Source: Rhodothermales bacterium (GTDB lineage Bacteria > Bacteroidota > Rhodothermia > Rhodothermales > JANQRZ01). From it: 64,000 nucleotides of DNA. Where the stretch lies: the NCBI GenBank assembly GCA_028284265.1, contig JANQRZ010000006.1, positions 207,610-271,609 on the forward strand. Reading direction: 5' to 3'. Both the position numbers and the translations under genes were made by a program. Positions 7,662-57,347 of the stretch are shown here, one piece after another (position 1 is the first letter of the stretch; the number at the start of each line of letters is the position of its first letter). The notes beneath the pieces are model-generated. The model saw only the letters and a program-made list of their open reading frames with translations, was not told where the DNA came from and did not search any database.

Positions 7662-8351
7662 GAGATGCGAGGCGAACAGAGTGATGGAACCAGAGGAGCC
7701 AGCGGCACCCTTCGGCGACAGACCATCCTGTCAGGGCGCACAATGGGTCAGGAATATACGTGAGGCACCGTCCGGCTCCGGGGAAATCTCGTTAAGACAG
7801 AGAGCCGATCCGTGGTGCGGACGGCCCCTGCACGTCCGAGGCACGCTTCGCCCATGCGAAGCCGTTCGGGAACGCTCGGCGGGCCATTTGGGTACTTGGA
7901 GGCGATGGAGGCTCACCCGTATTTTCCTCTGTCCGTTTCCCCCTTGTCACGCTCTGGGAAGCGACCCTTTTTAGCTGTAGCCGCGCTCTGCCGACCCTCT
8001 GTTATGGACCGGCCTTGCAGCGCGCCGGATCGATGCTCACGCTGTGGTCTTCCGACCTTCCGTGCAGCGCAGCGGCGGTCCCTCTTTACTCTGCCTTGCT
8101 GACGCTATCCGTTTTGCTGACGCACCGCACTTTCCACTTTCTCGCACGCCTGATCGAGACCGCCCTCGCGGTGCTCGGCGCTGGCCGTGGCCCTCGCCTG
8201 CTGCCGTCCCTCCAAGGCTCGCTCCGCCCGTCTGTGGCGTCTTCAGCGACTGGAGCGGGACGACATTGCTATACACAGGGCACGGAGCCACGCCACCGGG
8301 CGTCTTTCCGCCGTTCGGCTGCTCCCGAACGTGCGCCTTTACCCACCGTGT

Positions 8352-11096
8352 ATGTCCAAGGAAATCATCATCAACGTAACTGGCGGGCAGTCTCGCATCG
8401 CCATTGTGGAAGATGGGGAGCTTGTTGAGCTCTACATAGAAAACCCCGAGAACGTCCGCACCATCGGGGACATCTATCTCGGGCGGGTGCGCCGCATCCT
8501 GCCCGGTATCAAGGCGGCCTTCGTCGATATCGGCCAGAAGCAGGACGCCTTCCTCCATTTCTCTGACCTGTCGGACAACATTCCGGCGCTCCTCGAACTC
8601 TCCGAAGGCAAGGTCCCGGACTGGTCCACGAAGTCGCTCCCGAAGGCTCCGAAGCAGGACGACGACAAACCCGCCGATCTGGAGTTGGAGACGCCCGAAG
8701 AGCAGCGCGCCGCCAAGCGCCGCCGCGACCTGAAGCGGACCCACGGCAAGAACCGTCGCGGTCGGGGGCGGAAGAACGAGGAGGCATCTGAGACGACATC
8801 GAAGCAGGCTGCCGCCGAGCCGCAGGCCGAGCAAAAGGAGCAGGCCGCCGAGAACTCGGAGGCGAAGCGTCGGGACCGCTCGGATAGCCGGAGTCAGCGC
8901 GACCGGAGGGGCCGAGGCCAGAGCCGCCGCGAGCAGGCCGTGCCGCAGCCGCCGGAGAGCGAGGTCGTGCCCGACACCGCCCCGGAGATTCTGCCGCCGG
9001 ATGCCGTCGCCGAGCCGCCGAGCCGCGATGACGCCCCGACCTCCAAGTCGCAAGCCGATACCCAACCTTCGTCCGATGACAAGCCCAAGCGGCGGCGCGG
9101 TCGCCGGGGCGGTCGAGGCCGGAACCGGAGCCGTCGCCAGACGGTGCAGCCGACCAACGAGCAGCAGCCGGAGCAGCCTGACACCGAGGCACAGTCTGCC
9201 GATACCGAGACGACGGAGCAGCCGAAGGCAGAAGCCTCGTCCAACGCCTCGCGCAGCCGCCGGGGTCGTTCCCGCCGGTCGGAGTCCTCGGACGCCAAGC
9301 CGAACGCGGAGGCCAATGGAGCAGACCGCCGCGACGAGACCCCCCAGCCGTCGCCCGAGGCTTCGTCTGAACAGCCCAAAGCCGAGCAGCCGAAGTCCGA
9401 ACAGTCGAAGCCAGAGCGCAAGCAGAAGCCTAAAGCAGAGCGCCCCGAACCCAAGCCAGAGGTCGTCGATGCCTCCGCTGCGGCGTCCTCGCGGTTCGTC
9501 ATCGACCTCACCTCGAAGACGGGGCGCGTTGGCCGGGTGGAGGAAGAGGAGGAAGAAGAGGAACGCTCCTCGCGCAGCCGGGGTGGTCGTCGTCGCGGCG
9601 GGCGTCGCCGGGGCCGGTCCCGGTCAGGAGGCTCGTCGAACAACGGATCGGGAGGAGGAAATAGCCAAGATGGCAAAAGCCGGAACAGCCGGTCCTCCAA
9701 TCGGGGCCGATCCCAAAGCAACGGGTCTTCCAATCGCTCTGGTTCGTCCGACCGAGGTTCCTCGAACGGATCGGACTCGAACGTCCGCCCAGAGACCCAT
9801 CTCAAGCAGGACCAGAAGCTCATCGTCAAGATCACCAAGGAGCCGATCTCCTCGAAGGGGCCGCGCGTCTCGACGGACGTGTCGCTCGCGGGTCGATTCC
9901 TTGTCCTGATTCCGCAGGCGGACTACGTCGCGGTCTCGAAGAAAATCGAGTCGTCGAAGGAGCGGCGGCGGCTGCGCGCCCTCGCCCGGAGCCTCCTGCC
10001 CGAGAGCTTCGGCCTGATCGTCCGCACCGTCGCCGAGAACCGCGATGCGAAGGCGCTCAACACGGACCTCCGACTGCTGCTCGACAAGTGGAAGAAGATT
10101 GAGGACCAACTCAAAGAGAAGCCGAAGCCGCCGAAGGAGTTGCATCAGGACGTCAACATGGTGTCCTCCATCATCCGCGACCTCTTCAGCGACGACTACG
10201 ACCGGATCGTGGTGGACGACCCGGCGGTCCACCGAAACATCAAGAGCTACGTGCAGGCCGTCGCGCCGCAGATGGCTCCGCTCGTCAAGCTGCACAAGGG
10301 CAAGGAGCACGTCTTCCGCACCTACAAGATCGACCGCGACGTGCGCGCCGCGTTCGAGAGCCGGGTCTCGCTGCCGGGCGGTGGGTACCTGTTCATCGAG
10401 CACACCGAGGCGATGCACGTCGTGGACGTGAATTCGGGCCGCGCCGGGAAGGGGCTGTCTCAGGAAGAGAACGCGCTCCGCGTCAACCTCGAATCGGCCC
10501 GTGCGATTGCCAAGCAGCTTCGGTTGCGCGACCTCGGTGGGATCATCTGCGTCGACTTCATCGACATGCGGAGCGACTCGGCCCGCCGCAAGCTCTACGA
10601 CGAACTCAAGAAGGAATTCCGCAAGGACCGGGCGGTGACCAAGCTCCTGCCGATGTCCGACTTCGGCGTCATTCAGATCACCCGCCAGCGCCTCCGCCCG
10701 AGCATCACCACGACGACCGACGTGGATGACCTGCCCGCGCCGCTGCCCGAGTCCGAGGAGCCGCGCCGCGCCGAGCGCGAGTCGGTCGCCGAGGGCGAAA
10801 CGCTGACGGCGAGTGAGGTCGTCGCCAAGCTGGAGCAGTGGCTGGCGACGTACCGCGCCGAGGTGCAGGAGCAGCATCGCAAGCGGCCCATCCTGATCCG
10901 TGTCCACCCGTTCCTCGCGGCCTATCTCCAACGCGGCGTGCCGAGCGCGATCACCCGCTGGCGCTTCCGCACCTGGCTCAAGTTCCGCCTCGACGTGGAT
11001 GACAGCGCCGACCCGCTCTCGTTCTCCGTCCGCGACGAGAAGTCCGGCAAGAACCTTACCCGGAAGTACGACCCCGACCTGCGGGAAACTGCCTAG
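8352..11096 (+). CDS. Rne/Rng family ribonuclease (RNase G-like core) with a large S1-domain insertion
   Basis: The ATG at 8352 gives MSKEIIINVTGGQSRIAIVEDGELVELY...AAFVDIGQKQDAFLHFSDL, which is collinear with the E. coli RNase G N-terminus. The core resumes at KLIVKITKEPISSKGPRVSTDVSLAGRFLVLIP and continues through GGYLFIEHTEAMHVVDVNSG and LRDLGGIICVDFIDM. The ORF-track start at 8187 was rejected. Confidence 0.9.
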   Translation: MSKEIIINVTGGQSRIAIVEDGELVELYIENPENVRTIGDIYLGRVRRILPGIKAAFVDIGQKQDAFLHFSDLSDNIPALLELSEGKVPDWSTKSLPKAPKQDDDKPADLELETPEEQRAAKRRRDLKRTHGKNRRGRGRKNEEASETTSKQAAAEPQAEQKEQAAENSEAKRRDRSDSRSQRDRRGRGQSRREQAVPQPPESEVVPDTAPEILPPDAVAEPPSRDDAPTSKSQADTQPSSDDKPKRRRGRRGGRGRNRSRRQTVQPTNEQQPEQPDTEAQSADTETTEQPKAEASSNASRSRRGRSRRSESSDAKPNAEANGADRRDETPQPSPEASSEQPKAEQPKSEQSKPERKQKPKAERPEPKPEVVDASAAASSRFVIDLTSKTGRVGRVEEEEEEEERSSRSRGGRRRGGRRRGRSRSGGSSNNGSGGGNSQDGKSRNSRSSNRGRSQSNGSSNRSGSSDRGSSNGSDSNVRPETHLKQDQKLIVKITKEPISSKGPRVSTDVSLAGRFLVLIPQADYVAVSKKIESSKERRRLRALARSLLPESFGLIVRTVAENRDAKALNTDLRLLLDKWKKIEDQLKEKPKPPKELHQDVNMVSSIIRDLFSDDYDRIVVDDPAVHRNIKSYVQAVAPQMAPLVKLHKGKEHVFRTYKIDRDVRAAFESRVSLPGGGYLFIEHTEAMHVVDVNSGRAGKGLSQEENALRVNLESARAIAKQLRLRDLGGIICVDFIDMRSDSARRKLYDELKKEFRKDRAVTKLLPMSDFGVIQITRQRLRPSITTTTDVDDLPAPLPESEEPRRAERESVAEGETLTASEVVAKLEQWLATYRAEVQEQHRKRPILIRVHPFLAAYLQRGVPSAITRWRFRTWLKFRLDVDDSADPLSFSVRDEKSGKNLTRKYDPDLRETA
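8652..9791 (+). other. low-complexity, highly charged (R/S/E/K/Q/P/G) insertion inside the S1 domain of the RNase
   Basis: About 380 residues between the two halves of the S1 fold. Includes EQPKAE-type repeats, an E9 run, and RGG/RS-like tracts (RSRGGRRRGGRRRGRSRSGGSS..., SRNSRSSNRGRSQSNGSSNRSGSSDRGSSNG). E. coli RNase G has ~25 residues at this position. Confidence 0.8.
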
Positions 11097-12700: not shown

Positions 12701-13207
12701 GTGGCAGGCTACAAAGGACACCTCGCGGGCTCGCTCGCCTTCTTCGGCGTCTACCTCGCCGGACTCGCGTTCATTTTCTCCGTCGATCAGGCGTACCAGC
12801 AGTTCAGCGAGCTGGAGCTGATCGGCGTGCCGGTGGTGCTGTGCGGGCTGTGCCTGATGTTCGGGCTGTGGCCGGACGTAGATACCAACTCAAAGGGGCA
12901 GAACCTCTTCTACTCGATCTTCTTCGTCCTCGACGTGATCCTCATCATCGGGCGGCGGTTCGAGTGGGCAGCCTACCTCGGGCTTTTTGCGATTCTGCCG
13001 GTTCTCGGCAAGCACCGGGGCTGGACGCACACCTACTGGGCGATGCTGCTGATCCCGTCGCCGCTGCTCATCTTGCCGTACCTCCTTTTCCCCGACCGCC
13101 CGTTCGCCGGGCTACCGTTCTACGGCGCGGCGGTCGTGGGGTACTTCTCGCACCTCTTCATGGACGGCCTCGTGATCTCGTTCCCGCATCGCCGCGCCCG
13201 GCGCTAA
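12701..13207 (+). CDS. membrane-bound metal-dependent hydrolase (YdjM/DUF457-like)
   Basis: Multi-TM 168-aa protein with HRGWTHT and GYFSHLFMDG motifs. Uses a GTG start. Confidence 0.6.
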   Translation: MAGYKGHLAGSLAFFGVYLAGLAFIFSVDQAYQQFSELELIGVPVVLCGLCLMFGLWPDVDTNSKGQNLFYSIFFVLDVILIIGRRFEWAAYLGLFAILPVLGKHRGWTHTYWAMLLIPSPLLILPYLLFPDRPFAGLPFYGAAVVGYFSHLFMDGLVISFPHRRARR

Positions 13208-13896
13208 ACCTCAGCGCGGGCAGCGGGGCGATCGGCCTCGACCCAGCCGTCGTGCAGTTCGATGGTGCGGCTGCCGTAGGCAGTCCAGCGCTCAGAGTGC
13301 GTCACCTGAATCACCGTCACGCCGTCGTCTTCATTGAGCGCCTTGAACGCATCCATCACCTCCTGACCCTGCGACGAGTGGAGGTTGCCCGTCGGCTCGT
13401 CGGCGAGGATGAGGCGGGGGCGGATGATGAGCGCGCGTGCCACACCGACAAGCTGCTGCTGCCCGCCGGAGAGTTGGTGCGGGAAGAGGTCGGCCTTCGC
13501 CACCATGCCGAAGCGGTCGAGCATCTCGGCGACGCGGGCCTGCCGCTCGGCCTTCGGCGTCTTGGTGTAGAGCAGTGGCGTCTCTAGGTTCTCATAGACC
13601 GTCAACTCGTCGATCAGGTGGTAGGCTTGGAAGACGAAACCGATGTGCTCGCGGTGGAGCGCTGTCCGCTTCTTCTCGCTGAGTTGGTGGACTGGCTCGC
13701 CCTCGAAGTGGTACGATCCCTCGCTCGGCTCCTCCAGCATACCGACGATGTTCATCAGGGTGGACTTGCCGGAGCCGGACGGCCCTTGCACGGTGACGAA
13801 CTCGCCCTCGCGCACGGACAGGTCCACGTTACGGAGGACGTAGGTTTTCTGCTGGCCTTGCTTGTAGAATTTGCTGATGCCGCGTAGCTCGATCAT
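13204..13896 (-). CDS. ABC transporter ATP-binding protein, MacB/LolD/FtsE type
   Basis: Walker [10 protein letters not shown], signature LSGGQQQ, Walker [10 protein letters not shown]-loop VTH. Last gene of the operon that starts at 20800. It is the only ATPase of this type in the window. Confidence 0.95.
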
Positions 13897-13941
13897 GTCG
13901 GTTCGGTAGTCGGAGTGGGTAGGAGCAGGAGTCGTTCGGGG

Positions 13942-14733
13942 TTAGCCGCGTTCGATGTTGACGCCGCCGTTGGTGGTGACGGCGCGGACCGGCGGCCCTC
14001 CGTCGCCGAGGGTGGTCTGTACGCGCCGCCCGACATCGCCCTGCACCATCACGGGGAAGTCGATCCGCATTCGGCCGTTGATGGTGCCGGTTTCGAGGTC
14101 GGCGGAGTAGCCGTCGGGGACGACCAGCTTGACGCCGCCGTTGGTGGTGCGGGCGTCGAGGCCATAGCCGTCCCAGCGGTCGCCGGTGAGCCGGACGCTG
14201 AGGCCGCCGTTGGTCGTCCGGCCTCGCACGTCGCCACCGAGGCCGTCGAGGCTGACGCCGCCGTTTTGCGTGTCGAAGCGGATCTGGCCGGTGACCCCGT
14301 CGATGCTGATGCCGCCGTTTCTTGCTTCGAGGTCGAGGTTAGAGGCGCGAGGCACCATCAGCCGGAAGCTGACGCCGACCCACGCATCGCGGCCCGACCT
14401 CGGCACGCGGCTCTCGATGGTCCCGTCCGTCTCGACCTCGGACTCCGCAACGAGGCGGCGCACCTCGTCGCGGTCCTCGCCGACGGCCTGCACGCGGGCG
14501 CGGACCAAGACTTCGTCGCGGTCCCATGCCTCGACCCGGATGCCGCCGTTCTTACCGGCATCCACCGAGAGCGTGCGGCGTGGCGCGAGGGTGAACTCGC
14601 GGACCTCGCAGGCTCGCTCCGCATCGTAATTGTTGTTGTCCTCGGTGCACCATGCGTCGTCGGCGATAGTGCGCTGCGCGGCTGCAGGGAGCGCGATGAG
14701 CGTGAGGAAAAGGAGCAGGCTGAAGAGTCGCAT
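13942..14733 (-). CDS. DUF4097-like beta-strand repeat (putative adhesin-fold) secreted protein
   Basis: Signal peptide MRLFSLLLFLTLIALPAAAQ. Reiterated NGG(I/V/L)(S/K/N)(I/L/V) strands (NGGIRVE, NGGISID, NGGVSLD, NGGLSVR, NGGVKLV, NGGVNIE). Confidence 0.75.
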   Translation of the reverse strand: MRLFSLLLFLTLIALPAAAQRTIADDAWCTEDNNNYDAERACEVREFTLAPRRTLSVDAGKNGGIRVEAWDRDEVLVRARVQAVGEDRDEVRRLVAESEVETDGTIESRVPRSGRDAWVGVSFRLMVPRASNLDLEARNGGISIDGVTGQIRFDTQNGGVSLDGLGGDVRGRTTNGGLSVRLTGDRWDGYGLDARTTNGGVKLVVPDGYSADLETGTINGRMRIDFPVMVQGDVGRRVQTTLGDGGPPVRAVTTNGGVNIERG

Positions 14734-14773
14734 GACGAGAGGAGCGTGAGTGGGAAGGTACAGGGATGGTGCG

Positions 14774-17206
14774 TCAGTCGTAGCGGAGAGATTTGACCGG
14801 ATCGGCGAGGGCAGCCCGGACGGCGCGGAGGCTGATGGTCAGCAGGGCGATGGCGAGCGCCAGCCCGCCCGCGAGCAGGAAGATGCCGGGGCTGATGTCG
14901 ATGCGGTAGGCGAACCCATCGAGCCAGCGGCGCAGCCCGACATAGGCCAGCGGGGCCGCGATCACGGCTGCGATGAACACGAGGCGGGCGAAGTCTTTCG
15001 AGAGCAGAAGCACAATGCTCCCGACGCTCGCGCCGAGCACCTTGCGGACCCCAATCTCGCGGGCGCGCTGATCAGCAATGAACGCCGCCAGTCCGAGTAG
15101 CCCGAGGCATGCGATGAACAGGGCCAGTCCCGACGCAATGCCGAAGAGCCGCCCCGTGCGGACCTCCGCTGTGTAGAAGTCGCCCAGCCGCTGGTCGAGG
15201 AAGTTGTACTCGAACGGGCGGTCCGGGTCGAACGCCTCGCCGATGGTCCGCAACGCGGCGATGGTGGCAGGCAGGTTCTCCGGGCTGACCCGCGCCGTGA
15301 AATAGTCGATGGATTGGACCGGGTTGTCCCACGCCCCGATCACGAGTGGACGGATTTGCTCGTGGAGCGACCGGAAGTGGAAGTCTTCGACCACGCCGAT
15401 CACGTTCAGTGTGAGGTCCGGTTCGGCCTCGCCGTCGTCCTGCGCGCCGGGAATCGTGAGGCGTTGCCCGATGGGGTTGGTCAGGCCGAGGGCGCGCACA
15501 GCGGTTTCGTTGAGGAAGACGGCGGCGGAGTCTGCCGGTCGGCTCGGGGAGAAGTTGCGGCCCGCTTGGAGCGTCACCTCGAAGGTCGATAGGAAGTCTT
15601 CGTCCGCCCCGATGAAGGCGAGCGTTCGGGGCGTCGCGTCAGCCGCGCCCTCGGGGATGGCCTCGATCTCGACGATGTCTTTCCAGTCGCCCGGCACCCG
15701 CGAGGTCGTCGAGACGCTCTGGACAGCGGGCACCGCGGCGATCTCAGCCTTGATGGCGCGGAACTGCCGCCGCACATCCCCGCTGTTGATATCGACCACG
15801 ACGAGGCCGTCGGCCTCGAACCCGAGCGGCTTCGACTGGATGTAGTCGAGCTGGCGCATCACCGTCAGCGTCGCCACGATGATGCCGATGGACAGCGCGA
15901 ACTGGCCCACGATCAAACTGCGCCGAAGCGCCGCGCCGCGCCGCTGGCCTTCCAGCCCCCGGAGCGCGAGCGCCGGACGAAACCGCGAGAGATAGAGCGC
16001 CGGGTAGCTCCCAGCCACAATGCCCACGATGAGGGCCAGCCCGACGAGCGCCGCGAGCAACCAGCCCGCCGAAACCGGCGAGAGCGTCAGCGATTTTCCT
16101 GCAAGTGTGTTGAACGCCGGGAGGACGAGCGCGACCAGCCCGATAGCCGCCGCGACGGATACGCCCGATAGCAGCACCGATTCGCTCAGGAACTGCCCTG
16201 CGAGTTGCCCCCGGTGTGCGCCGAGGGCCTTGCGTACCCCGACTTCCCGCGACCGCCGCATCGAGCGTGCCGTCGCGAGGTTCATGTAGTTGATCGAGGC
16301 GATGAGGAGGACGAAGAGCGCAATCGCCGAGAAGACGTAGAGGTAGGTGATCGGGCGCTTGTCGCGGTTGAACACATCCTCGATCTCGCCCGAGCCGAAG
16401 TGGATGTCGGCGAGGGGCTGGAGGGTGATTGCCTCCGTCGTGGCCTCCTCGGTCTGGTGCCGGTCCAGCATCCCCGCAAGTCGGGCCTCGACTACCGGAG
16501 CCGACTGGGCCTCGTCGAGCGCGACGTAGGTAAGGAATGAGCGGGAGTTGGGCGTCCAGTTGGCCGCGTAGTCGTTCCACCACCGGGTCTCGGTGGCAAA
16601 CGTGGCTGCCGAGAACAGCATGGAGAACGTGAGGTGCGAGTTGGCGGGCGGGTCGCGCAGCACTGCCGTCACGGTCATCGCTCCGAAGCCTTCCACCTCG
16701 ACCGTTTCGCCGATTGGGTCTTCGTCGCCAAAATATTGCCGTGCCGACGACTCGGTGAGGACGATGCTGTGGGGCGTGTCGAGCGCGGCGGTCGTGCCCT
16801 GCATCAACTCGAATCCATCGAACACATCGAAGAAACTCGGCTCGGCCACGAGGTAGTCGCCCACGTAGGCGCGCTGCTCACCGCGCTCGACGGTGAAGCG
16901 CCACAGGCTGATGAGCCGCGTCGCGGCGGCAACCTCGGGCACCTCATCCACGAGCGCCACGCTCACAGGCCCCGCCGTCGCGGCTATGAGTTGGTCGCCG
17001 AGATCCGGCGTGGCGCGGGTCTCGACCACGCGGAAGGTCCGGTCCGACGCCTCGTGGAAGCGGTCGAAGCGAAGCTCGTCGAGGACGTACAGCCCGATCA
17101 GCAGGCAACACGCCACACCGACGGTGAGGCCCGCGACGTTGATGAACGCATAGCCTTGGTCCCGGCGGAGCGCACGGAGGGCCGTTATGAGATAGTTCTT
17201 CAGCAT
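14774..17206 (-). CDS. duplicated FtsX/MacB-type ABC permease (paralogue 1)
   Basis: 810 aa. N-terminus MLKNYLITALRALRRDQGYAFINVAGLTVGVACC. Two FtsX modules (INYMNLATARSMRRSREVGVRKALGA...; GLLGLAAFIADQRAREIGVRKVLGAS...). C-terminus ADPVKSLRYD. Confidence 0.9.
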   Translation of the reverse strand: MLKNYLITALRALRRDQGYAFINVAGLTVGVACCLLIGLYVLDELRFDRFHEASDRTFRVVETRATPDLGDQLIAATAGPVSVALVDEVPEVAAATRLISLWRFTVERGEQRAYVGDYLVAEPSFFDVFDGFELMQGTTAALDTPHSIVLTESSARQYFGDEDPIGETVEVEGFGAMTVTAVLRDPPANSHLTFSMLFSAATFATETRWWNDYAANWTPNSRSFLTYVALDEAQSAPVVEARLAGMLDRHQTEEATTEAITLQPLADIHFGSGEIEDVFNRDKRPITYLYVFSAIALFVLLIASINYMNLATARSMRRSREVGVRKALGAHRGQLAGQFLSESVLLSGVSVAAAIGLVALVLPAFNTLAGKSLTLSPVSAGWLLAALVGLALIVGIVAGSYPALYLSRFRPALALRGLEGQRRGAALRRSLIVGQFALSIGIIVATLTVMRQLDYIQSKPLGFEADGLVVVDINSGDVRRQFRAIKAEIAAVPAVQSVSTTSRVPGDWKDIVEIEAIPEGAADATPRTLAFIGADEDFLSTFEVTLQAGRNFSPSRPADSAAVFLNETAVRALGLTNPIGQRLTIPGAQDDGEAEPDLTLNVIGVVEDFHFRSLHEQIRPLVIGAWDNPVQSIDYFTARVSPENLPATIAALRTIGEAFDPDRPFEYNFLDQRLGDFYTAEVRTGRLFGIASGLALFIACLGLLGLAAFIADQRAREIGVRKVLGASVGSIVLLLSKDFARLVFIAAVIAAPLAYVGLRRWLDGFAYRIDISPGIFLLAGGLALAIALLTISLRAVRAALADPVKSLRYD

Positions 17207-17227
17207 GGCGATGGCGTGTGGTGTGGC

Positions 17228-17500
17228 TTATTCGGGGACCGCGTCCTCCTGTTGCGCTCGCAGCCGGAACATCACCGGCACGCGCTCTGCCGTCGGCGTG
17301 CCGATCTGGACGAGCAGCCACTCCTCGCCGTGGCTCGCGATGAACTCGCGCAGCGCCTCGACCCGCGACGGGTTGTCTTCCGGCCACTCCAGCGTTTCGA
17401 CGCGGTACTGCACGCGCTGCTTCTGGCCGTCGATCACGACGTCTACGTCGATCGTGCGGGTCTGGTCAATCGGGGGAATGGGGACGCAAATCTGACTCAT
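17228..17500 (-). CDS. hypothetical 90-aa protein (no signal peptide)
   Basis: Compact ORF lying 21 nt upstream of the permease and 30 nt downstream of the repeat-protein gene. Composition looks coding. No family recognised. Confidence 0.5.
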   Translation of the reverse strand: MSQICVPIPPIDQTRTIDVDVVIDGQKQRVQYRVETLEWPEDNPSRVEALREFIASHGEEWLLVQIGTPTAERVPVMFRLRAQQEDAVPE

Positions 17501-17530
17501 CGGGATCAGGCGTTTGGTGAGCGGTAAGGG

Positions 17531-19351
17531 TTAGCGGGTATCGGCGCGGTAGACGGTAATGCCCCAGTAGAGCGGGTCATCAGGCGGCGAGGCGTTCCAG
17601 TCGCCGAAGGCGTGCGAGCCGTCGGTGCGGTAGCGGAGTTCGTAGTCGCCCGCAGGGAGGGTGAGGGTAACGTTCGCCATGCGGTTCTTCTTCGCGCCGC
17701 CCGCCCGCTCCGTCGTCCGGTAGGTCATCTCCCAGACAGCCCGCCCGGTCTCGGCATCCTCGATCCAGCCGTAGTCGTACATGTGGTCACCGCTGCCTTC
17801 GCCGAGGGCGTAGATGCGGACCTCGGTAGGCCGGTCGAGGGTAAAGCGCTGTCGCCCGCGGTCGCTGTCGCGGACGCGCGTGATCTGGGCGATGACATTC
17901 GCCTCGGTGCGATCCCTCTCGGCGAATGTTTGAATGCGATCCGCGCCCTCTGCGGTGAGGAGCGAGAGACCCCAGTACTCGCCCCCGACGGGTGGGGAGG
18001 CGTTCCAGTCGCGGTACGCATGGGAGTCGTCGGTGACGTAGTAGGCGATATAGTCGCCCGCGTCGAGGGTCACGATGCCGTCGAAGACGCGGTTTTTCTG
18101 GGCACCGCCCGCGTGCTCGGTCCGACCGTCGCGCATGTCCCAGACGCGCTCGCGGGTGTCGGCGTCCACAATCCAGCCATAGTCGTGGAAATCAGTGGCG
18201 TGGTCCGTGGCTTCGCCGAGGGCATAGACCCGCACATTGGTTCGGCGGTCGAGGGTGAAGCCACGGGCCTCGAAGTCATCGTCGCGGGCACGGGTGAGCG
18301 AGAGGAAGGTCTCCGCCGGCGGGACGTGCTCGTAGTCGAACAACTCAACGTTCGCCCGGTCGCTGGTGCGAAGCGTCAGGCCCCAGAAGACCGGATCGAA
18401 GGCGGGCACGGCGTTCCACTCGTTGGATGCGTGCGAGTCGTCGGTGACGACGAACGCGGCGTAGCGACCGGCAGGAAGCGAGAGGGTCTCGCGGACGACA
18501 CGGTTCTTGTCCGAGCCCCCCGCCCACTCGGACGAGTAACCGTCGAAGGTCCAGACGGTCTCGCGGGTGTCGGCGTTGAGAATCCAGCCGTAGTCGTAGG
18601 CTTCATCGCGCCTCGCCTCGCCGATGGCATAGAGGTCGATCTCGGTCGGTCGGTTGAGGACGAAGCCCTGCTGCTCGTAGGTTTCGTCCTCCAGCCCGAC
18701 GAGGGTCACAAAGGCGTTCGCAGTGAAGGCATCGTAGGCCTCTTGAAGGGCATCGCGGTCGCCGGTGCGTCCGTCGCCGCGCACGACGAGGCGGAAGTCG
18801 CGGAAGGCTTCGTTCTCGACGAACTCGCCCCCGTAGCCCTGGCGCTGCCACGTCCCTCGGTCGCCGTCGAAGAAGCTCGAAATCGTGTGGCTGATGGTTC
18901 CGATGAGACCTCGGTGGTCGTCATCGTCATCATCACTCCAGTAATACGACATGCCGGGGTAGGAGGCGTAGTAGGCCTCGTAGGTGCCCGCCGGAAGCTG
19001 AACGGTGCCCTCGAAGGTGTGGACGCCGCGCCGCTCGTCGGTGTCCGCCTCGCGGAGCGTCCAGACCACCTCGCGGGTGCGGGCGTCGAGGATCCACGCT
19101 TCGCCGGGCCAGTAGTCGGGGCGCTCCCAGCGCTTGTCCCAGTCCCAGCCGTCCCATCGGTCCCGGCCCCGGTCCTTCGCCCCGAGGGCTTCGACACGGA
19201 CGGTCTGTGGTGAGGCGAGCGTGAACGACGCCATCGCAAGCTCGCGGGGCGAGAAGTCGCGGAGGTCGACGAGGGTTCGGCTCTGGGCCGAGGCAGGACT
19301 GCTCAGGCCGATGAGGGCGAGCAGCAGGATAGAAGCGAGGAGGCGAATCAT
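17531..19351 (-). CDS. secreted protein with four tandem copies of an uncharacterised ~120-aa module
   Basis: Signal peptide MIRLLASILLLALIGLSSPASAQ. Repeats lie at roughly aa 40-145 (degenerate), 213-330, 348-468 and 486-603. They share F.L.R.T.V.(I/V)YA(L/I)GE...(Y/H)DYGWI.DA.T(R/G)..VW.M....AGG..KNR....L.AG.Y...Y.TD.SHA...WN..P....WG. Confidence 0.8.
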   Translation of the reverse strand: MIRLLASILLLALIGLSSPASAQSRTLVDLRDFSPRELAMASFTLASPQTVRVEALGAKDRGRDRWDGWDWDKRWERPDYWPGEAWILDARTREVVWTLREADTDERRGVHTFEGTVQLPAGTYEAYYASYPGMSYYWSDDDDDDHRGLIGTISHTISSFFDGDRGTWQRQGYGGEFVENEAFRDFRLVVRGDGRTGDRDALQEAYDAFTANAFVTLVGLEDETYEQQGFVLNRPTEIDLYAIGEARRDEAYDYGWILNADTRETVWTFDGYSSEWAGGSDKNRVVRETLSLPAGRYAAFVVTDDSHASNEWNAVPAFDPVFWGLTLRTSDRANVELFDYEHVPPAETFLSLTRARDDDFEARGFTLDRRTNVRVYALGEATDHATDFHDYGWIVDADTRERVWDMRDGRTEHAGGAQKNRVFDGIVTLDAGDYIAYYVTDDSHAYRDWNASPPVGGEYWGLSLLTAEGADRIQTFAERDRTEANVIAQITRVRDSDRGRQRFTLDRPTEVRIYALGEGSGDHMYDYGWIEDAETGRAVWEMTYRTTERAGGAKKNRMANVTLTLPAGDYELRYRTDGSHAFGDWNASPPDDPLYWGITVYRADTR

Positions 19352-19357
19352 GGCGGT

Positions 19358-20800
19358 TTAGTTGTCTTCTGCTAGGGTGCCCATGATGGCCGGGCCGATC
19401 TCTTCGGCGATGGGCGGGTCGAAGTTGGCGAGTACGAGCACCGTGTAGCCCGACTCGAAATCTGATTCCCATGTCGAGTTGAGGCCCGGTGCGCCTCCGG
19501 CCCGACCGAAGGCAGCATCGGGTTGCCTTTCGGGATCGTAGTCGGCTAGGAAGAGGCGTGTCATCGCCGGGCTAAGAAGTCGGTGGTCAAGGAGCGCTCG
19601 CTCGAAGCGGAGTAGGTCTTCGGCGGTGGCATAGCCGCCGCCTGCGGGTGTGCCGCGAGGGCCGAGACCATCCGGCAGTGGCTCGGCATAGCCGGGTTCG
19701 CTTCGCTGGGTGTAAGGCACCGCGAGGTTCGGCGCATCGCGCCAGTACGAGTCCGTGTTCTCCATGCCAGCAGGTGTATAGACATGCTCCCGCACGAAGT
19801 CGTAGTACGACTCGCCGGATACGCTTTCGACGATCCCACCGAGCACCTCGTAGCCGACGTTGCTGTACTGCCACTGCGTGCCCGGCTCGAAGTCCAGTGG
19901 GATGTCACGTAGGAACGCGAGGTAGTCGTTGATCTCACGAAGCTCCGTTCGCTGCGCGAGGTAGACGGGATGGTCCCAGTAGTGTCCCCAGCCGGAGCGG
20001 TGCTGGAGCAGGTGCCGCGTCGTTACTCGGTCTGCGACCTCATCGGGGAAGCCGTCGAGGTAGGTGCCGATGGGCGCATCGAGATCGAGCTTACCCATCT
20101 CGGCGAGCTTGAGGGTGGCAACGCCGGTGATGAGCTTGTTGAGCGAGCCAATGTTGAAGCGCGTGTCGAGGGTGTTGCGCTGCCCCTCGGCTTTGTTCGC
20201 CCAGCCGTAGGCCTCGCTAAAGATCACCTCCCCGTGCCGCGCTACAAGCACGACGCCGGAGAAAGCCTCATCGGTCTCGGCCTGTTCTAGGTAGGCGTTC
20301 ACCTCGTCGAGGCTACTGAACTGAATGCCCTCGTTCTCCCCGGCAGCTTCTACTTGGAATCCACGGATCGGGTGAGGCGGAGCCTCATCAACCATGAGTG
20401 TCACTTGGAAGGCCGGACCGCCTGCGGGGTTACGAACGACAAAAGACCCTTCGTATGGACTGCGCAGCTCCACGTCCATGATCTCGGCATCGCCCAAATC
20501 GTTGTGGAGCATTCTCAACATCCTGACGATCTGGTCCTCCGATACCCGAGTCTTCAGGTCGGAACTGATGGCTGTCGCGGCGAAGGCACGGTGCGTTTCT
20601 GGGTCGGGGCTACAGACCGTAGCGAAAAAGGCATTGGCCTGCGCCCCGATGGCATCAGGCGGGAGCTGGCGCATCCGGTCGCAGTCATCGCGGAGTGCTG
20701 CGAGCGACTGGTCATCAGTGTAGACCGTGAAAGACAGGCTGCCGAGGGTGACAAGCAGCACGAAGAGGTAAGGCATGGTGCGAGGAGATGGCGGGAGCAT
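19358..20800 (-). CDS. beta-lactamase-fold serine hydrolase (class C/DD-peptidase-like) with an extra N-terminal domain
   Basis: SxxK motif (FNIGSLNKLITG) and YxN motif (QYSNVGYEVLG). The start is trimmed to the Met at 20800 (alternative 20776) because the ORF-track extension to 20944 runs through the promoter/UAS module. Confidence 0.8.
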   Translation of the reverse strand: MLPPSPRTMPYLFVLLVTLGSLSFTVYTDDQSLAALRDDCDRMRQLPPDAIGAQANAFFATVCSPDPETHRAFAATAISSDLKTRVSEDQIVRMLRMLHNDLGDAEIMDVELRSPYEGSFVVRNPAGGPAFQVTLMVDEAPPHPIRGFQVEAAGENEGIQFSSLDEVNAYLEQAETDEAFSGVVLVARHGEVIFSEAYGWANKAEGQRNTLDTRFNIGSLNKLITGVATLKLAEMGKLDLDAPIGTYLDGFPDEVADRVTTRHLLQHRSGWGHYWDHPVYLAQRTELREINDYLAFLRDIPLDFEPGTQWQYSNVGYEVLGGIVESVSGESYYDFVREHVYTPAGMENTDSYWRDAPNLAVPYTQRSEPGYAEPLPDGLGPRGTPAGGGYATAEDLLRFERALLDHRLLSPAMTRLFLADYDPERQPDAAFGRAGGAPGLNSTWESDFESGYTVLVLANFDPPIAEEIGPAIMGTLAEDN

Positions 20801-20822
20801 AGGGGTATCTCCCGTTCCTCCG

Positions 20823-20838
20823 CGCAAGCCATATGCCG
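20823..20838 (-). promoter_or_regulatory. sigma54-type -24/-12 promoter (copy 5)
   Basis: Minus strand reads CGGCATATGGCTTGCG, with the GG-N10-GC spacing of TGGCAC-N5-TTGC. Lies 23 nt upstream of the ATG at 20800. Confidence 0.65.
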
Positions 20839-20891
20839 CCGCTGCCGTGCGCTCAAAACGGTGCGTCCGGGCACATTGAGCTATCGCCAAG

Positions 20892-20928
20892 TGTGCGTTT
20901 GCGCCCACCCGATGTGCGCAGGCGCGCA
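20892..20928 (-). promoter_or_regulatory. tandem palindromic upstream sites (putative enhancer/UAS, copy 5)
   Basis: Site A is tgtgcgtttgcgccca (20892..20907) and site B is tgtgcgcaggcgcgca (20913..20928). Their centres are 21 bp apart. The site A centre is 63 bp from the -24 GG. Confidence 0.55.
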
Positions 20929-20948
20929 GCCGACTTCGCCTCAAACCG

Positions 20949-21851
20949 TCAGGGCAGGTTCACCAAGCGGTCCAGATCGATCTGGTAGATGTCTGAGTTG
21001 TTGCCCGCGAGGTGGGCATAGAAGAGGTACCGACCATCGGGGGAGAACGCAGGCGTCCACTCGTAGTCTGCCGTGTTGATTGTGTCTCCCAGATTGGCGA
21101 CGGATGACCACGCCCCGTCCTCATTGTAGACCACGAACAGGTCGCCTCGTCCCTGCCCCCCTTCGCGCTCCGAGTAGAAGATGATGAAGCGCTCCTCCGG
21201 GTCCACGATGGCCTCGCCATCGGTGGCCTCACTGTTGAAGGGCACTATCACTGGTTCGGCATAGTGTCCCTCCACCAACGCCGCCCGGTGGATATCGACG
21301 CCGCCCGGTCCCCCGGCTCGGTTGGAGTGGAAGTAGAGGTCGCCCTTCGCCGTCGTGTGGGGATGGCTGTCGATGCCGTCGCCGTTGAGGGGTGCGGGTA
21401 GGTGCTGGGGCGTGCCCCAGCCGTCGTCCGTTCGCTCGACAAACCAGAGGTCGTTGTGCGAGCGTTCGCCTGTGTCATCGACAGGCCGCTTCGAGGCGAA
21501 GTAGAGCCGGTCGCCGTCGAACGACGGATACTCGTCGCTGTACTGACCGGAGAACGGAAGCACCGTCGGTTCTTGCCACGCGCCCTCTGCGAAGTGGGAG
21601 ACGTAGAGGGCAGGTGTGTCTCGCCACGATGCGCGCCGGGTGAAATAGAACGTCCGTCCGTCCGGCGAGAACGTCGGGCCGTACTCGATGGCGTCTGTGC
21701 TGATGACGCCGGGTGCGAAGAGCAGCGGCTCCTCCAACGTTTCGGCGGTCTGGTACGGATGAGGCTGTGCTACGGCGTTGCAGCACACCAAAAACGCGAC
21801 GAGCGTGGCAATCCCAAGAGGCTGCGAAATCGCACGGTGGAAGGCGGGCAT
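20949..21851 (-). CDS. TolB-like/PD40 beta-propeller repeat secreted protein
   Basis: Signal peptide plus repeated F(S/T)PDG(R)..(Y)F motifs (TFSPDGRTFYF, PSFDGDRLYFAS, AFSPDGRYLFYA). Confidence 0.7.
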   Translation of the reverse strand: MPAFHRAISQPLGIATLVAFLVCCNAVAQPHPYQTAETLEEPLLFAPGVISTDAIEYGPTFSPDGRTFYFTRRASWRDTPALYVSHFAEGAWQEPTVLPFSGQYSDEYPSFDGDRLYFASKRPVDDTGERSHNDLWFVERTDDGWGTPQHLPAPLNGDGIDSHPHTTAKGDLYFHSNRAGGPGGVDIHRAALVEGHYAEPVIVPFNSEATDGEAIVDPEERFIIFYSEREGGQGRGDLFVVYNEDGAWSSVANLGDTINTADYEWTPAFSPDGRYLFYAHLAGNNSDIYQIDLDRLVNLP

Positions 21852-21880: not shown

Positions 21881-22354
21881 CTAGTCGTCCAGCGTCTCGG
21901 AGAGCTGGATGGTGTTTCCGTCAGGATCACGGATTTGGATCAGGCGCAGGTCGTGGGCCGGGAAGTCGATGGCTCTGGGCCGCTCCCCGGTGGCGGCCTC
22001 TACACGGTCGGCGATGACGTCCACATCGGGCACCCAGAACCCGACCTTGTAGAAGCCGAGATCCCGGTCTACGTTCGGGGCCTCAGCACGCCAGATCAAC
22101 TCGACGAACAGGTGCTCGCTCGTCAGGTTGATGATGCGCGCTGTGCTGTCGTCGGCGGTCCAGCGGTCGTGCTCCGCCAAGCCGAACGCCTGGCTGTACC
22201 AGTCAGCCGACTTGTCTATGTTCTCCACGAGCACAGCGAAGAACTGACGTGCACTGATCTCGGACACCCACGGCTCGGCCTGCTGCGCACTCGCTGCCGT
22301 GCTAGCGAACAGCACCAGTAGCAAGCAGTGGAGTACTCGGAGTGATGTAGCCAT
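21881..22354 (-). CDS. VOC/glyoxalase-family protein with signal peptide
   Basis: 157 aa, N-terminal MATSLRVLHCLLLVLFASTAASAQ. Glyoxalase-like beta-alpha-beta pattern, with C-terminal IQIRDPDGNTIQL typical of VOC proteins. Confidence 0.6.
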   Translation of the reverse strand: MATSLRVLHCLLLVLFASTAASAQQAEPWVSEISARQFFAVLVENIDKSADWYSQAFGLAEHDRWTADDSTARIINLTSEHLFVELIWRAEAPNVDRDLGFYKVGFWVPDVDVIADRVEAATGERPRAIDFPAHDLRLIQIRDPDGNTIQLSETLDD

Positions 22355-22359
22355 GCCGG

Positions 22360-24732
22360 TTATTCGTAGCGAAGGGCCTTGACGGGGTCGACCGTCGCGG
22401 CCCGGAAGGCGTGGTAGCTCACCGTCAGCAGCGCGATGGCAAGGACCGTGAGTCCGGCGAGGGCAAACACGCCGGGGCCGAGCGCTGTCCGGTAGGCGAA
22501 CCCGTCAAGCCATCGCTCCGCTGCCATCCACGCCAGCGGACAGGCCACTGCGAACGCGATGAGAACGGGCTTGGCGAAGTCCTTGCTCAGGAGCACCACC
22601 ACGCTCGCCGCCGACGCGCCGAGCACTTTCCGCACGCCGACCTCTTTCGTCCGTTGAACGGCTAGGAACGAGGCCAGCCCGAACAGACCGAGGCAGGCGA
22701 TAAGGAGCGCCACCAGCGCGCCGATACCGACGATCTTGCCCCACCGCTCCTCCGCCTGATAGAGTCGGTCGAGATCGCTGTCGAGGAAGGAGTAGGTGAA
22801 AGGCTGGGCCGTCGAGAGGGTGCGCCACGTTGTCTCCAGCTTGGCGAGTGTTGCTGGAAGATCGTCCGTGCGGAGGCGGAGCGCGATGCCCTGCGAGTCG
22901 TTGAAGTTGGGGAAGAGGAGATAGGGGGCAATCGGCTCGCGCAGCGACGTGTAGTGGAAGTCCTTGACCACGCCGACGATCTCGCGCTCCTGCCCCCAGA
23001 TGGTGGCCTGCTTGCCGATGGCCTCCTCGGGCGAGGTCCAGCCGATCTCGCGTACCGCCGTCTCATTGAGCAGCACGGCCCGGTCGGCGCTCGCGTCCCG
23101 GCTTTGCGAGAAGTTGCGACCGGCGGCGAGTTCCATCCCCATCGTGCCGACGTAGGCGTCGTCCACCCAGCCCATGAACATGCGAAATGGGTCGCCCGTC
23201 ATGCCTTCGGGCCGGAAGTCCGTCGTGGCGGGCATCTGGGTGCCGGGGAGCGAGGTCGTCGCGGTGACGCTCGTGACTTCGGGCAGTGCGGCGAAGGTGG
23301 CCTTGACCGTGCCCGGCTGCTGCGCCACGGTCGAGTCGCGCACGGGGACGATCACGACCTGTTCCTCATCGAAGCCGAGTTTCTCACTCTGGATGAAGTC
23401 AAGCTGTTGATAGACCACGCCCGCCCCGACGACGAGGACGACCGCCGCGATGTACTGCGCTACCACGAGGGCCTGCCGCAGCGGCGAGCGCGTCCCCGTG
23501 CTCGCGCCCTTCAACGCCATACGCGGAGCCGAGGCCGAGAGTACGAGTGCCGGATAGCCACCCGCCGCGAGGCCGGTCAGGAGCGCGATGCCGAGCGCCA
23601 CACCGAGCACGAGGCCGCTGCCGTAGTCGAGGGCAAGCTCGCCGCCGAGGAGGGTGCCAAAGGCGGGCAGCAACAATTCGATCAAACCCAGCGCTACGAC
23701 GAGGGCGAGGCCCGCCATTACGAGCGATTCCGTGAGCACCTGCACCGCAAGTTGATTGCGCTGGGCACCGACCGCCTTGCGGACGCCGATCTCCTTCGCC
23801 CGTCGGGCAAATTGAGCGGTGGTGAGGTTCGTGTAGTTGATGCACGCCAACAGCAGGATGATCGCGGCGAGGGCGGCGAGGAGCCAGACGTACCGGATGT
23901 CGCTGTTGGCCTCTAGCTCGCCCCGGTAGTCGGAATAGAGGTGGATGTCGGTGAGCGGCTGGAGCCGGTAGACGGTTACGCTCTCCTCGCCGAGTGTTCG
24001 GTCCACGAAGTCGGGAAGCTTGGCGTCAAGCGCCGCCGGATCCACGCTTTCCGCGAGCGTGAGGTAGGTTGGAAAAGCACCGAGGCCCCAGTTGTCGAGC
24101 ACGTTGTCCCAGCCCATCACGTCGTCCAGTGCCTCGACCGAGCCGAGCATCGAGAAGCTGAAGTGCGAGGTGCGCGGCGGGTCGGCGAGGACGGCGGTCA
24201 CGGTCATCGCGTGCTCGGCGTTCAGCATGAGCGTCTGGCCGAGCGGGTCATCTTCGCCGAAGTAGGTCTGCGCCGCCGACTCGGTCAGGACGAGCGAGAA
24301 CGGCGCGGCGAGCGCCTCCTCCGGCGTCCCGCGCAAGAACTCGAAGCCGAAGACTTGGAAGAACTGCGCGTCGGTGAAGAGCAAGTCCTCCTCATAGAAC
24401 CCCGTGTCGTCCCGACTCACGAGGGGCGTGAACCAGTAGCGGAACAGCCGCGTCGCGTGCTCGATCTCGGGATAGTCGGCCAGCAGCGCAGGAGCAAGCG
24501 GGGCCTCCGGCGTCACGTCCTCAGCCAGCGCGTTGTCCTGCTGCACGATCCGGTAGGTCCGTTCGGCGTTCGGGTGGAAGCGGTCGTAGCTCACCTCGTC
24601 GCGGAGGAACAGCAGCAGCAGCAGGCAGCACGCGATGCCGAGTCCGAGTCCGTAGATGTTGATGAACCCGTAGAGCTTCTGCTTACGCAGCGTGCGGAGG
24701 GTGGCCTTGAGGTAATTGGTCCACATAAACAC
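22360..24732 (-). CDS. duplicated FtsX/MacB-type ABC permease (paralogue 2)
   Basis: 790 aa with the same architecture (INYTNLTTAQFARRAKEIGVRKAVGA; GLFGLASFLAVQRTKEVGVRKVLGAS; C-terminus VDPVKALRYE). Lies 6 nt downstream of paralogue 3. Confidence 0.9.
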   Translation of the reverse strand: MFMWTNYLKATLRTLRKQKLYGFINIYGLGLGIACCLLLLLFLRDEVSYDRFHPNAERTYRIVQQDNALAEDVTPEAPLAPALLADYPEIEHATRLFRYWFTPLVSRDDTGFYEEDLLFTDAQFFQVFGFEFLRGTPEEALAAPFSLVLTESAAQTYFGEDDPLGQTLMLNAEHAMTVTAVLADPPRTSHFSFSMLGSVEALDDVMGWDNVLDNWGLGAFPTYLTLAESVDPAALDAKLPDFVDRTLGEESVTVYRLQPLTDIHLYSDYRGELEANSDIRYVWLLAALAAIILLLACINYTNLTTAQFARRAKEIGVRKAVGAQRNQLAVQVLTESLVMAGLALVVALGLIELLLPAFGTLLGGELALDYGSGLVLGVALGIALLTGLAAGGYPALVLSASAPRMALKGASTGTRSPLRQALVVAQYIAAVVLVVGAGVVYQQLDFIQSEKLGFDEEQVVIVPVRDSTVAQQPGTVKATFAALPEVTSVTATTSLPGTQMPATTDFRPEGMTGDPFRMFMGWVDDAYVGTMGMELAAGRNFSQSRDASADRAVLLNETAVREIGWTSPEEAIGKQATIWGQEREIVGVVKDFHYTSLREPIAPYLLFPNFNDSQGIALRLRTDDLPATLAKLETTWRTLSTAQPFTYSFLDSDLDRLYQAEERWGKIVGIGALVALLIACLGLFGLASFLAVQRTKEVGVRKVLGASAASVVVLLSKDFAKPVLIAFAVACPLAWMAAERWLDGFAYRTALGPGVFALAGLTVLAIALLTVSYHAFRAATVDPVKALRYE

Positions 24733-24738
24733 TTAGGG

Positions 24739-27174: not shown

Positions 27175-27183
27175 GGCAGGATG

Positions 27184-29574: not shown

Positions 29575-29607
29575 GGCGAGAGGTCAGGAGAGTAGGCTCC
29601 TGTCTTG

Positions 29608-29623
29608 CGCAAGCGATATGCCA
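29608..29623 (-). promoter_or_regulatory. sigma54-type -24/-12 promoter (copy 4)
   Basis: Minus strand reads TGGCATATCGCTTGCG. Lies 34 nt upstream of the ATG at 29574. Confidence 0.7.
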
Positions 29624-29676
29624 TGAGAGGCTCACCGTCCGAAGTGGCTCATGCAGCGTACCGATCCATTGCCCGG

Positions 29677-29713
29677 TGCGCGCTGCCGCACACTCGGTGG
29701 GCGCTAGCGCGCA
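29677..29713 (-). promoter_or_regulatory. tandem palindromic upstream sites (copy 4)
   Basis: Site A is tgcgcgctgccgcaca (29677..29692) and site B is tgggcgctagcgcgca (29698..29713). Centres are 21 bp apart. Site A is 63 bp from the -24 GG. The module ends 9 nt from the stop of the preceding permease gene. Confidence 0.55.
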
Positions 29714-29722
29714 GTGCCAGCG

Positions 29723-32101: not shown

Positions 32102-32108
32102 GGGGTTC

Positions 32109-34538: not shown

Positions 34539-34540
34539 GG

Positions 34541-36910: not shown

Positions 36911-36941
36911 GAAGGCAGGAGGATGGGAGTGACTCCCATCG

Positions 36942-36957
36942 CGCAAGCCATATGCCA
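36942..36957 (-). promoter_or_regulatory. sigma54-type -24/-12 promoter (copy 1)
   Basis: Minus strand reads TGGCATATGGCTTGCG. Lies 32 nt upstream of the ATG at 36910. Confidence 0.7.
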
Positions 36958-37021
36958 CCTCACGCCCGTCTAATGCGATGCGCGTTGGGCGGCTTGAGAG
37001 CCTGCCGCACGCTTCAGGCAC

Positions 37022-37058: not shown

Positions 37059-37059
37059 G

Positions 37060-54813: not shown

Positions 54814-54843
54814 AGCAGGAAGGGCTGGGTTCAGAACGCGCTT

Positions 54844-54961: not shown

Positions 54962-54968
54962 GCCTCGC

Positions 54969-57338: not shown

Positions 57339-57347
57339 AGCAGGAGA

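Follow-up and report, generated by a model that had tools for sequence, protein, structure and literature searches.

A six-gene operon of a Rhodothermales bacterium as a lineage-specific mosaic in a predicted sigma-54-dependent regulon of MacB-type permeases

A 64,000-nt stretch of the genome of a Rhodothermales bacterium (GenBank assembly GCA_028284265.1, contig JANQRZ010000006.1, positions 207,610 to 271,609; hereafter the window) contains six co-directional minus-strand open reading frames (ORFs) at 13204-20800, located as an earlier note on this DNA had described. They encode a serine hydrolase, a four-repeat protein (rep4), a 90-aa protein (p90), a MacB-type permease, a DUF4097 (toastrack) protein and an ATP-binding cassette (ABC) ATPase. 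Do the six products form one envelope-surveillance or envelope-remodelling machine, as the earlier note had proposed, or did the genes come together in some other way? Judged by gene content across relatives, the six-gene set is a lineage-specific mosaic that ends a large MacB-type permease regulon, and not a dedicated envelope machine. The explanation we consider the most probable, with moderate confidence, is that the locus forms the last operon in a sigma-54-dependent regulon comprising about 12 duplicated MacB-type permeases that share one ATPase. The features of the operon, in the direction of transcription, are as follows.

20891 to 20929, minus strand: predicted upstream activator sequence of promoter copy 5, two 16-bp palindromes read from the sequence
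20824 to 20838, minus strand: predicted sigma-54-type -24/-12 element, cGGCATATGGCTTGC, with the canonical 10 nt between GG and GC
19358 to 20800, minus strand: exported PF00144 serine hydrolase, 480 aa (PF00144 E 9e-61)
17531 to 19351, minus strand: rep4, exported four-domain beta-sandwich repeat protein, 606 aa, from a large uncharacterised family
17228 to 17500, minus strand: p90, cytoplasmic, 90 aa, conserved companion of the ATPase
14774 to 17206, minus strand: duplicated MacB-type permease, 810 aa, eight transmembrane (TM) segments, two MacB_PCD and two FtsX domains
13942 to 14733, minus strand: exported DUF4097/toastrack beta-helix protein, 263 aa (PF13349 E 3e-7)
13204 to 13896, minus strand: MacB/LolD/YbbA-type ABC ATPase, 230 aa, the only MacB-type ATPase in the window

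The intergenic spacers, when recomputed, are 6, 30, 21, 40 and 45 nt, matching the six-gene arrangement behind promoter copy 5 that the earlier note had drawn. The hydrolase starts at the ATG at 20800, 23 nt past the GC of the -12 element, and not at the TTG of the long ORF. This start is confirmed by an independent gene call in L089, a second assembly of the same organism (loci used for comparison carry L numbers throughout). The N-termini of the hydrolase, rep4 and the DUF4097 protein carry hydrophobic export signals, bearing out the claim of three exported products; p90 and the ATPase lack them.

The comparison covered about 95 related loci, with a rep4-anchored part of 88 loci searched by tblastn with eight window proteins. 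The earlier note had proposed a neighbourhood search for co-occurrence of rep4, DUF4097 and FtsX permease genes, and had held that a gene order conserved in no related genome would speak against its reading. For the six-gene order this is what was found: none of the 88 rep4-anchored loci contains the set, and elsewhere it occurs only in L089, which is 100% identical across all genes. The closest syntenic relative, L090, has YdjM, dehydroquinase, metallo-beta-lactamase-fold, RNase E/G and citrate synthase neighbours in common with the window. Its corresponding genes run cassette-permease-permease-p90-DUF4097-ATPase, without the hydrolase, rep4 and the intervening permease. L091 reads cassette-p90-permease-DUF4097-ATPase, with identities of 75% for the permease (at the same position), 71% for the DUF4097 protein and 92% for the ATPase. 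Simpler versions are found in L093, L094 and L096 (cassette-p90-ATPase), L092 (two permeases, then p90-ATPase) and L097 (five permeases, then p90-ATPase). Across the eight p90 loci, a toastrack gene is present in three and a permease gene lies between p90 and the ATPase gene in two, and the order p90-permease-DUF4097-ATPase is common to the window and one other genome, L091. Neither the hydrolase nor the rep4 gene occurs in L090, L091, L096 or L097, and among the p90 loci only the window organism has either of them. Because relatives keep only p90 and the ATPase, the six-gene set is best read as a lineage-specific mosaic. In gene order, the invariant core is the pair of p90 and, downstream of it, the ATPase gene; what lies between promoter and p90, the hydrolase and rep4 genes, is variable cargo. 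The simplest history would be that the cassette originally drove p90-ATPase and that the hydrolase and rep4 genes were later added, in this lineage, between cassette and p90.

The machine of the earlier note would have the permease and ATPase mechanically control the PF00144 hydrolase, in the manner of FtsEX-EnvC/PcsB or YbbAP-TesA, with rep4 and the toastrack protein as adaptors. The tight spacing behind a single promoter cassette and the three exported products fit this proposal, and YbbAP-TesA, in which a duplicated FtsX-type permease works with a periplasmic serine hydrolase at a 2:1 ATPase:permease ratio (PMC12646458), makes the comparison with hydrolase partners a legitimate one. A PF00144 gene also lies directly upstream of a rep4 gene in a distant Cytophagia metagenome-assembled genome (MAG), L048. 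The confinement of the set to one organism and the absence of hydrolase and rep4 from equivalent operons tell against it, as does L005, which has the closest rep4 homologue (73% identity): there the cassette directly precedes rep4 and a permease gene follows 12 nt after, with no hydrolase or p90. Further, most rep4 genes have no transporter gene within 10 kb, the permeases beside rep4 genes in six loci do not form one orthologous clade, and PF00144 genes are so abundant in these phyla that two adjacencies in about 90 loci could be chance. A single machine of six products is therefore quite unlikely.

If the set is a mosaic, what is conserved within it? p90 is upstream of the ATPase gene in eight of eight independent loci with downstream sequence (window/L089, L090, L091, L092, L093, L094, L096 and L097), these eight being the basis of the linkage within a wider p90 family of 131 clusters. 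A metagenome scan for p90 gave three short loci, in which p90 and the ATPase gene are again adjacent. Across relatives (L090, L091, L093, L094, L096 and L097), p90 is 80-89% identical and the ATPase 91-94%; the permeases are less well conserved, in line with a single ATPase that works with many partners. p90 has 35 close homologues (56-89% identity), and an exhaustive profile search gave 131 representative clusters of 85-100 aa, including low-GC Bacteroidota-like versions. Its N-terminal M-x-Q-I-C-[VI]-P-I-P is strictly conserved, and the protein has a W-x-L-V-Q-I-G core. No Pfam family matches p90, wider-family representatives included; no PDB sequence matches below E 0.07 and no fold below E 0.2. 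The AlphaFold2 model is beta-beta-alpha-beta-beta (pLDDT 69). We propose that p90 may be a cytoplasmic assembly or regulatory partner of the shared ATPase.

What would bring such different genes under common control is the promoter. Sigma-54 promoters follow the pattern TGGCAC-N5-TTGC and have inverted-repeat activator sites about 70-150 bp upstream. The element at 20824-20837, GGCATATGGCTTGC, is one of five near-identical minus-strand copies in the window (20824, 29609, 36943, 54845 and 62188), each lying in an intergenic gap ahead of minus-strand genes. The motif carries T, not the classical C, at position 6; an exact search for TGGCAC-N5-TTGC returned chance-level matches only, and a relaxed -24/-12 motif gave 23 matches against 10.4 expected, a number reached in none of 100 shuffles. 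Upstream of copy 5 are the palindromes TGCGCGC-CT-GCGCACA (20928-20913) and TGGGCGC-AA-ACGCACA (20907-20892), 21 bp apart centre to centre, a distance kept by the 16-bp palindromes of every copy in the window. We aligned 14 cassettes, five from the window and nine from six related loci. In all 14, a palindrome pair (TGYGCGC-NN-GCGCRCA) lies 55-70 nt upstream of the -24/-12 element, with the consensus CTGYGCGC-NN-GCGCRCA-N5-TGKGCGC-NN-GCGCACA, then TGGCATATSGCTTGC. The canonical GG/GC distance of 10 nt and the inverted-repeat upstream sites, conserved in 14 copies, uphold the sigma-54 reading of the earlier note at the level of sequence. Nor does the cassette head permease genes alone: it directly precedes p90 in L091, L093, L094 and L096, and elsewhere a rep4 gene or a membrane fusion protein (MFP) gene. 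In L008 the cassette is flanked on one side by a divergent Response_reg/Sigma54_activat/HTH_8 gene and on the other by an MFP-ATPase-permease array, an arrangement that suggests an NtrC-type response regulator as the predicted activator.

The cassettes could also be remnants with no regulatory meaning, copied along with tandem permease duplication while the genes are expressed from other promoters. The permeases are paralogues whose upstream DNA could have been co-duplicated, and the regulatory role of the cassette is read from sequence conservation. A scan for terminators and sigma-70 promoters over 12.5-30 kb gave matches at or below shuffle expectation, the sigma-70-type scan being one that does not cover Bacteroidota-type promoters. 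Against this, the permease paralogues flanking the cassettes share only about 35-46% protein identity, yet the palindromes and the -24/-12 element are nearly invariant across the 14 cassettes and the spacer between them is not conserved; this points to a footprint of selection, not to recent duplication. The canonical GG/GC spacing, the non-permease genes behind some copies and the sigma-54 activator gene beside the cassette in L008 point the same way, making the remnant explanation very improbable.

The same 12.5-30 kb scan found no terminator-like site at the boundary between the operon and the PD40 gene upstream of it, which makes read-through from the 29609 promoter possible, so that transcription of the operon may include it. 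At the other end, the ATPase gene (13204-13896, minus strand) and a convergent YdjM-family gene (12701-13207, plus strand) overlap by 4 nt at their 3' ends, so that an intrinsic terminator could not fit between them. L090 carries an inserted PIN/PhdYeFM toxin-antitoxin pair where these two genes meet.

What, then, are the two cargo genes? The hydrolase has the PF00144 fold with the SxxK (S-L-N-K) and YxN (Y-S-N) motifs named in the earlier note and a GGG box, together with an additional N-terminal domain of about 165 aa. Against models for AmpH, PBP4B, D-aminopeptidase and class C enzymes its best scores are 56-80 bits, with cut-offs of 266-550. A named equivalog (AmpC, AmpH, PBP4B or D-aminopeptidase) was therefore rejected, the scores being far below every curated cut-off, and this equivalog-model comparison gave no support for a resistance beta-lactamase. 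By its motifs and fold family, the protein is a predicted generic serine hydrolase with a beta-lactamase/PBP4*/AmpH-like fold.

rep4 has no Pfam or NCBIfam family and no sequence relative in the PDB. The earlier note had called it a four-repeat protein: the AlphaFold2 model does have four beta-sandwich domains (pLDDT 84, pTM 0.78), and the sequence contains three canonical repeats of about 120 aa each and one degenerate N-terminal repeat. The conserved motifs are GEG..DYGWI..W.M..AGG..KNR..G.Y..D.SH..WN..PP..WG. A Foldseek search of the PDB gave weak beta-sandwich matches (TM-score at most 0.29: ColG collagen-binding domain, C1q head, CUB and CBM51), too weak for function to be transferred. 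rep4 is therefore an exported multi-domain protein that probably binds a ligand. Its homologues number at least 1,948, every one annotated hypothetical, and species-representative genomes contain 571 confirmed loci of the family, the best 80 of which lie in Gemmatimonadota, Bacteroidota, Rhodothermales, Calditrichota, KSB1, Latescibacterota, Marinimicrobia, Ignavibacteriales and Acidobacteriota.

Most of the 88 rep4 loci are stand-alone, without partners. A minority (L004, L005, L008, L046, L056, L061, L071 and L084) lie in or beside a same-strand duplicated-permease array, and in Gemmatimonadales the gene belongs to a housekeeping synteny block with acyl-CoA dehydrogenases and EtfAB. Unbiased clustering of rep4 neighbours recovered only this Gemmatimonadales block and permeases as recurrent. 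A dedicated permease partner for rep4 was rejected on the clade test of the six loci mentioned above (a neighbour-joining tree without bootstrap).

Could the hydrolase and rep4 nevertheless be a unit of their own, a two-gene periplasmic module of binding protein and serine hydrolase acting on a polymer or peptide, which is merely co-regulated and has no physical link to the transporter? The two genes are 6 nt apart, both are absent from the syntenic relatives, and the weak fold matches of rep4 are to collagen-binding, CUB, C1q and CBM-type binding domains. Among about 90 rep4 loci, however, a PF00144 gene is directly beside rep4 only in the window and in L048, so that the adjacency, although it recurs, is found in just two; L005 and most other loci have rep4 without a PF00144 gene, and the Gemmatimonadales genes sit in their housekeeping block. 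Such a module is possible, though we think it improbable.

Several rep4 neighbourhoods are recorded here in their own right. In L048 (1551-11794), the rep4 gene is preceded on its own strand by three consecutive PF00144+TPR genes and a DUF5916/CBM9 gene; 62 nt separate the end of the last PF00144 gene from rep4, and rep4 is followed by an FGE-sulfatase-domain gene and an extracytoplasmic function sigma/anti-sigma pair. In L006 (10001-12973) and L007, from one Gemmatimonadota lineage, a HisKA/HATPase_c histidine kinase gene begins 22 nt after rep4. In two Gemmatimonadota/Longimicrobiales MAGs (L032, 3977-6500; L049, 1339-3900), rep4 is tail-to-tail with a DUF4097 gene whose product is 43-46% identical to the window toastrack protein. 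In three unrelated MAGs (L015, 3235-6122; L087, 554-3170; L076, 9243-11761), rep4 directly follows a MacB-type ATPase gene of the same orientation, whose product is 49-63% identical to the window ATPase; a duplicated permease was not detected within the sequence of these three loci.

The permease has eight hydrophobic segments in a 1+3 pattern that occurs twice, with PF12704 and PF02687 in both halves. By its domains and TM pattern (a 4-TM unit with a large periplasmic MacB_PCD domain between TM1 and TM2) it belongs to the type VII ABC superfamily, in agreement with the MacB/FtsX-type transporter of the earlier note. Its nearest solved relatives are MacB proteins; YbbP was not found by phmmer at E 0.001. 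The ATPase matches DarD, MacB, LolD and FtsE models at E 1e-58 to 1e-70 and, in the PDB, MJ0796, the MacB nucleotide-binding domain (NBD), LolD, BceA and YbbA at E 1e-45 to 1e-58 (YbbA 2.5e-45). Walker A (GPSGSGKS) and signature (LSGG) motifs are intact, as expected of an NBD of the MacB/LolD/FtsE subfamily. The statement that it is the only ATPase is right for MacB-type ATPases in the window and wrong overall, since an ABC-2 type ATPase is encoded at 45596-46504.

The toastrack protein belongs to DUF4097 (PF13349, 30.4 bits against a gathering cut-off of 22.9), as the annotation of its homologues also says, and has a weak LiaG/LiaX match. Its family has at least 4,867 homologues of about 265-275 aa in Rhodothermales and Gemmatimonadota. 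L090 and L091 have the gene ahead of that for the ATPase, and L092, L093, L094, L096 and L097 lack it; in relatives the protein is 71-82% identical. Toastrack genes beside ABC ATPase and permease genes have been described by Ravi et al. 2024, whose prediction places most toastrack domains inside the cell, with links to PspC, LiaF or HAAS-PadR (PMC11237479). The window gene resembles those operons in lying immediately before an ABC ATPase gene and next to a permease gene, and differs in that its product has a cleavable-looking signal peptide, lacks a PspC or LiaF partner and is optional in relatives.

Which known system does the locus most resemble? The closest solved one is YbbAP-TesA of E. 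coli, a type VII ABC transporter-lipid hydrolase complex (PDB 9GE6-9GE8; PMC12646458). Both have a separate small ATPase, a permease of the FtsX type that is a single duplicated, pseudo-symmetric chain of about 800 aa and has two periplasmic Porter/Sabre domains, and an exported serine hydrolase encoded nearby. The differences are considerable: YbbP has 10 TM segments and the window permease eight; TesA has a GDSL fold in place of PF00144; the hydrolase is conserved with the transporter in that system but not in relatives of the window lineage; YbbA serves one permease and no array, whereas the window has about 12 paralogues and one ATPase gene; and regulation in the window would be through the sigma-54 cassette.

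The closest described gene family is ADOP (acidobacterial duplicated orphan permeases), of which Psychroflexus torquis has a 42-kb cluster of ten highly expressed paralogues with unassigned function (PMC3914696). The likeness lies in the long tandem arrays of duplicated MacB_PCD/FtsX permeases, few of which have an ATPase next to them. Classical ADOP genes, however, are often paired with PadR regulators, as near L006, whereas the window arrays carry the sigma-54 cassette and end in the p90-ATPase module. ADOP membership (TIGR03434) was rejected by the curated NCBIfam threshold: the permease scores 293.2 bits over residues 241-810 against a cut-off of 622.3, and is a relative only.

With MacAB-TolC, LolCDE and FtsEX the locus shares a MacB/LolD/FtsE-type ATPase, the FtsX 4-TM unit and the MacB_PCD domain, and the relative L008 has a MacA-like MFP gene heading its array. 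It departs from them in having no MFP, TolC, LolA/B or EnvC-like gene in the window, in the fused pseudo-dimeric form of the permease and in massive paralogy. An FtsEX-type hydrolase activator system, the comparison offered in the earlier note, was rejected: FtsX_Gpos matches at E 0.008 only, no LytM, CHAP or NlpC/P60 partner is present, and the permease is duplicated.

The remaining permease units and their accessory genes extend over much of the window, which holds in total about 12 paralogous genes for duplicated 8-TM permeases in cassette-headed units.

22360 to 37063, minus strand: six further duplicated permease genes in two units, cassettes at 29609-29622 and 36943-36956
52426 to 63926, minus strand: five more duplicated permease genes, the last cut by the window end, cassettes at 54845-54858 and 62188-62201
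about 29676-29714, 37021-37059, 54924-54962 and 62266-62304, minus strand: predicted upstream activator sequences for cassettes 29609, 36943, 54845 and 62188, respectively
20949 to 21851, minus strand: exported PD40 beta-propeller protein, at the 3' end of the preceding permease operon
21881 to 22354, minus strand: exported glyoxalase-fold protein, at the 3' end of the preceding permease operon

More than one permease unit closes with genes for exported accessory proteins. The three permease genes behind cassette 29609 are followed by those for the glyoxalase-fold and PD40 proteins, both with signal sequences, and the single permease gene behind cassette 54845 by that for an S41 peptidase (50336-52309, minus strand) with a CBM20-like domain and a signal peptide. 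At 42021-46504 (minus strand) a 1192-aa fusion of an ABC-2 membrane domain and an M1 peptidase is preceded by its own ABC-2-type ATPase, a pair that adjoins the permease array also in the syntenic relative L090. An RNase E/G homologue (8187-11096, plus strand) has a low-complexity insertion of about 400 aa rich in R, S, E, K and P. Rfam had no match in the window, and a PADLOC search for defence systems matched generic ABC-ATPase models only.

How might such a regulon work? In the reading we favour, that of a terminal operon in a regulon with a shared ATPase, an NtrC-type response regulator would bind the palindromes and activate sigma-54 polymerase at all cassettes together. Each 8-TM permease would be a fused pseudo-dimer with two coupling helices, to which two copies of the single ATPase would attach as they do in YbbA2-YbbP, regardless of which paralogue is being produced. 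Binding and hydrolysis of ATP would then move the paired periplasmic domains by the mechanotransmission known for type VII ABC systems, on which this mechanism is modelled (PMC5985334, PMC12646458). That movement may extract or expel compounds from the periplasm or the outer leaflet of the inner membrane, with the permease paralogues broadening the substrate range and p90 acting as a cytoplasmic-side partner in assembly or regulation. The co-expressed exported proteins (hydrolase, rep4, toastrack, PD40, glyoxalase-fold and S41) would bind or degrade the compounds handled; we propose that they are co-regulated periplasmic accessories and not fixed subunits.

Several points weigh against this reading. 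No gene for an enhancer-binding protein or sigma-54 was found in the window, the activator search covering ORFs from 150 aa upwards. The picture of one ATPase for all permeases applies to the 64-kb window only, and the genome may encode further MacB-type ATPases. Promoter, activator sites and operon structure are predictions from conservation, and the role given to p90 is a guess from position and conservation for a protein of moderate model confidence and no known-fold match. A bolder version would make p90 a cytoplasmic subunit or gatekeeper that distributes one ATPase among a dozen co-induced permeases, and rep4 a new, repeatedly recruited class of periplasmic partner, in a "one engine, many heads" type VII ABC regulon. 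We regard this version as speculative and rather unlikely; if true, it would explain how orphan duplicated permeases are powered in Bacteroidota, Rhodothermota, Gemmatimonadota and Acidobacteriota.

What is of interest in this locus is the architecture of the regulon (a shared cassette, one ATPase and many permeases), the p90-ATPase pair and two unannotated families. The comparison corrects the tempting view of the beta-lactamase-fold gene as a fixed transporter partner, and flags rep4 and p90 as conserved families without annotation. Few membrane-protein families have expanded as much in Bacteroidota/Rhodothermales, Gemmatimonadota and Acidobacteriota as the orphan duplicated MacB-type permeases. 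For these permeases, the locus offers a testable picture, in which a predicted sigma-54/activator cassette is shared by the array, a single ATPase gene stands at its end, and a conserved 90-aa companion accompanies that ATPase.

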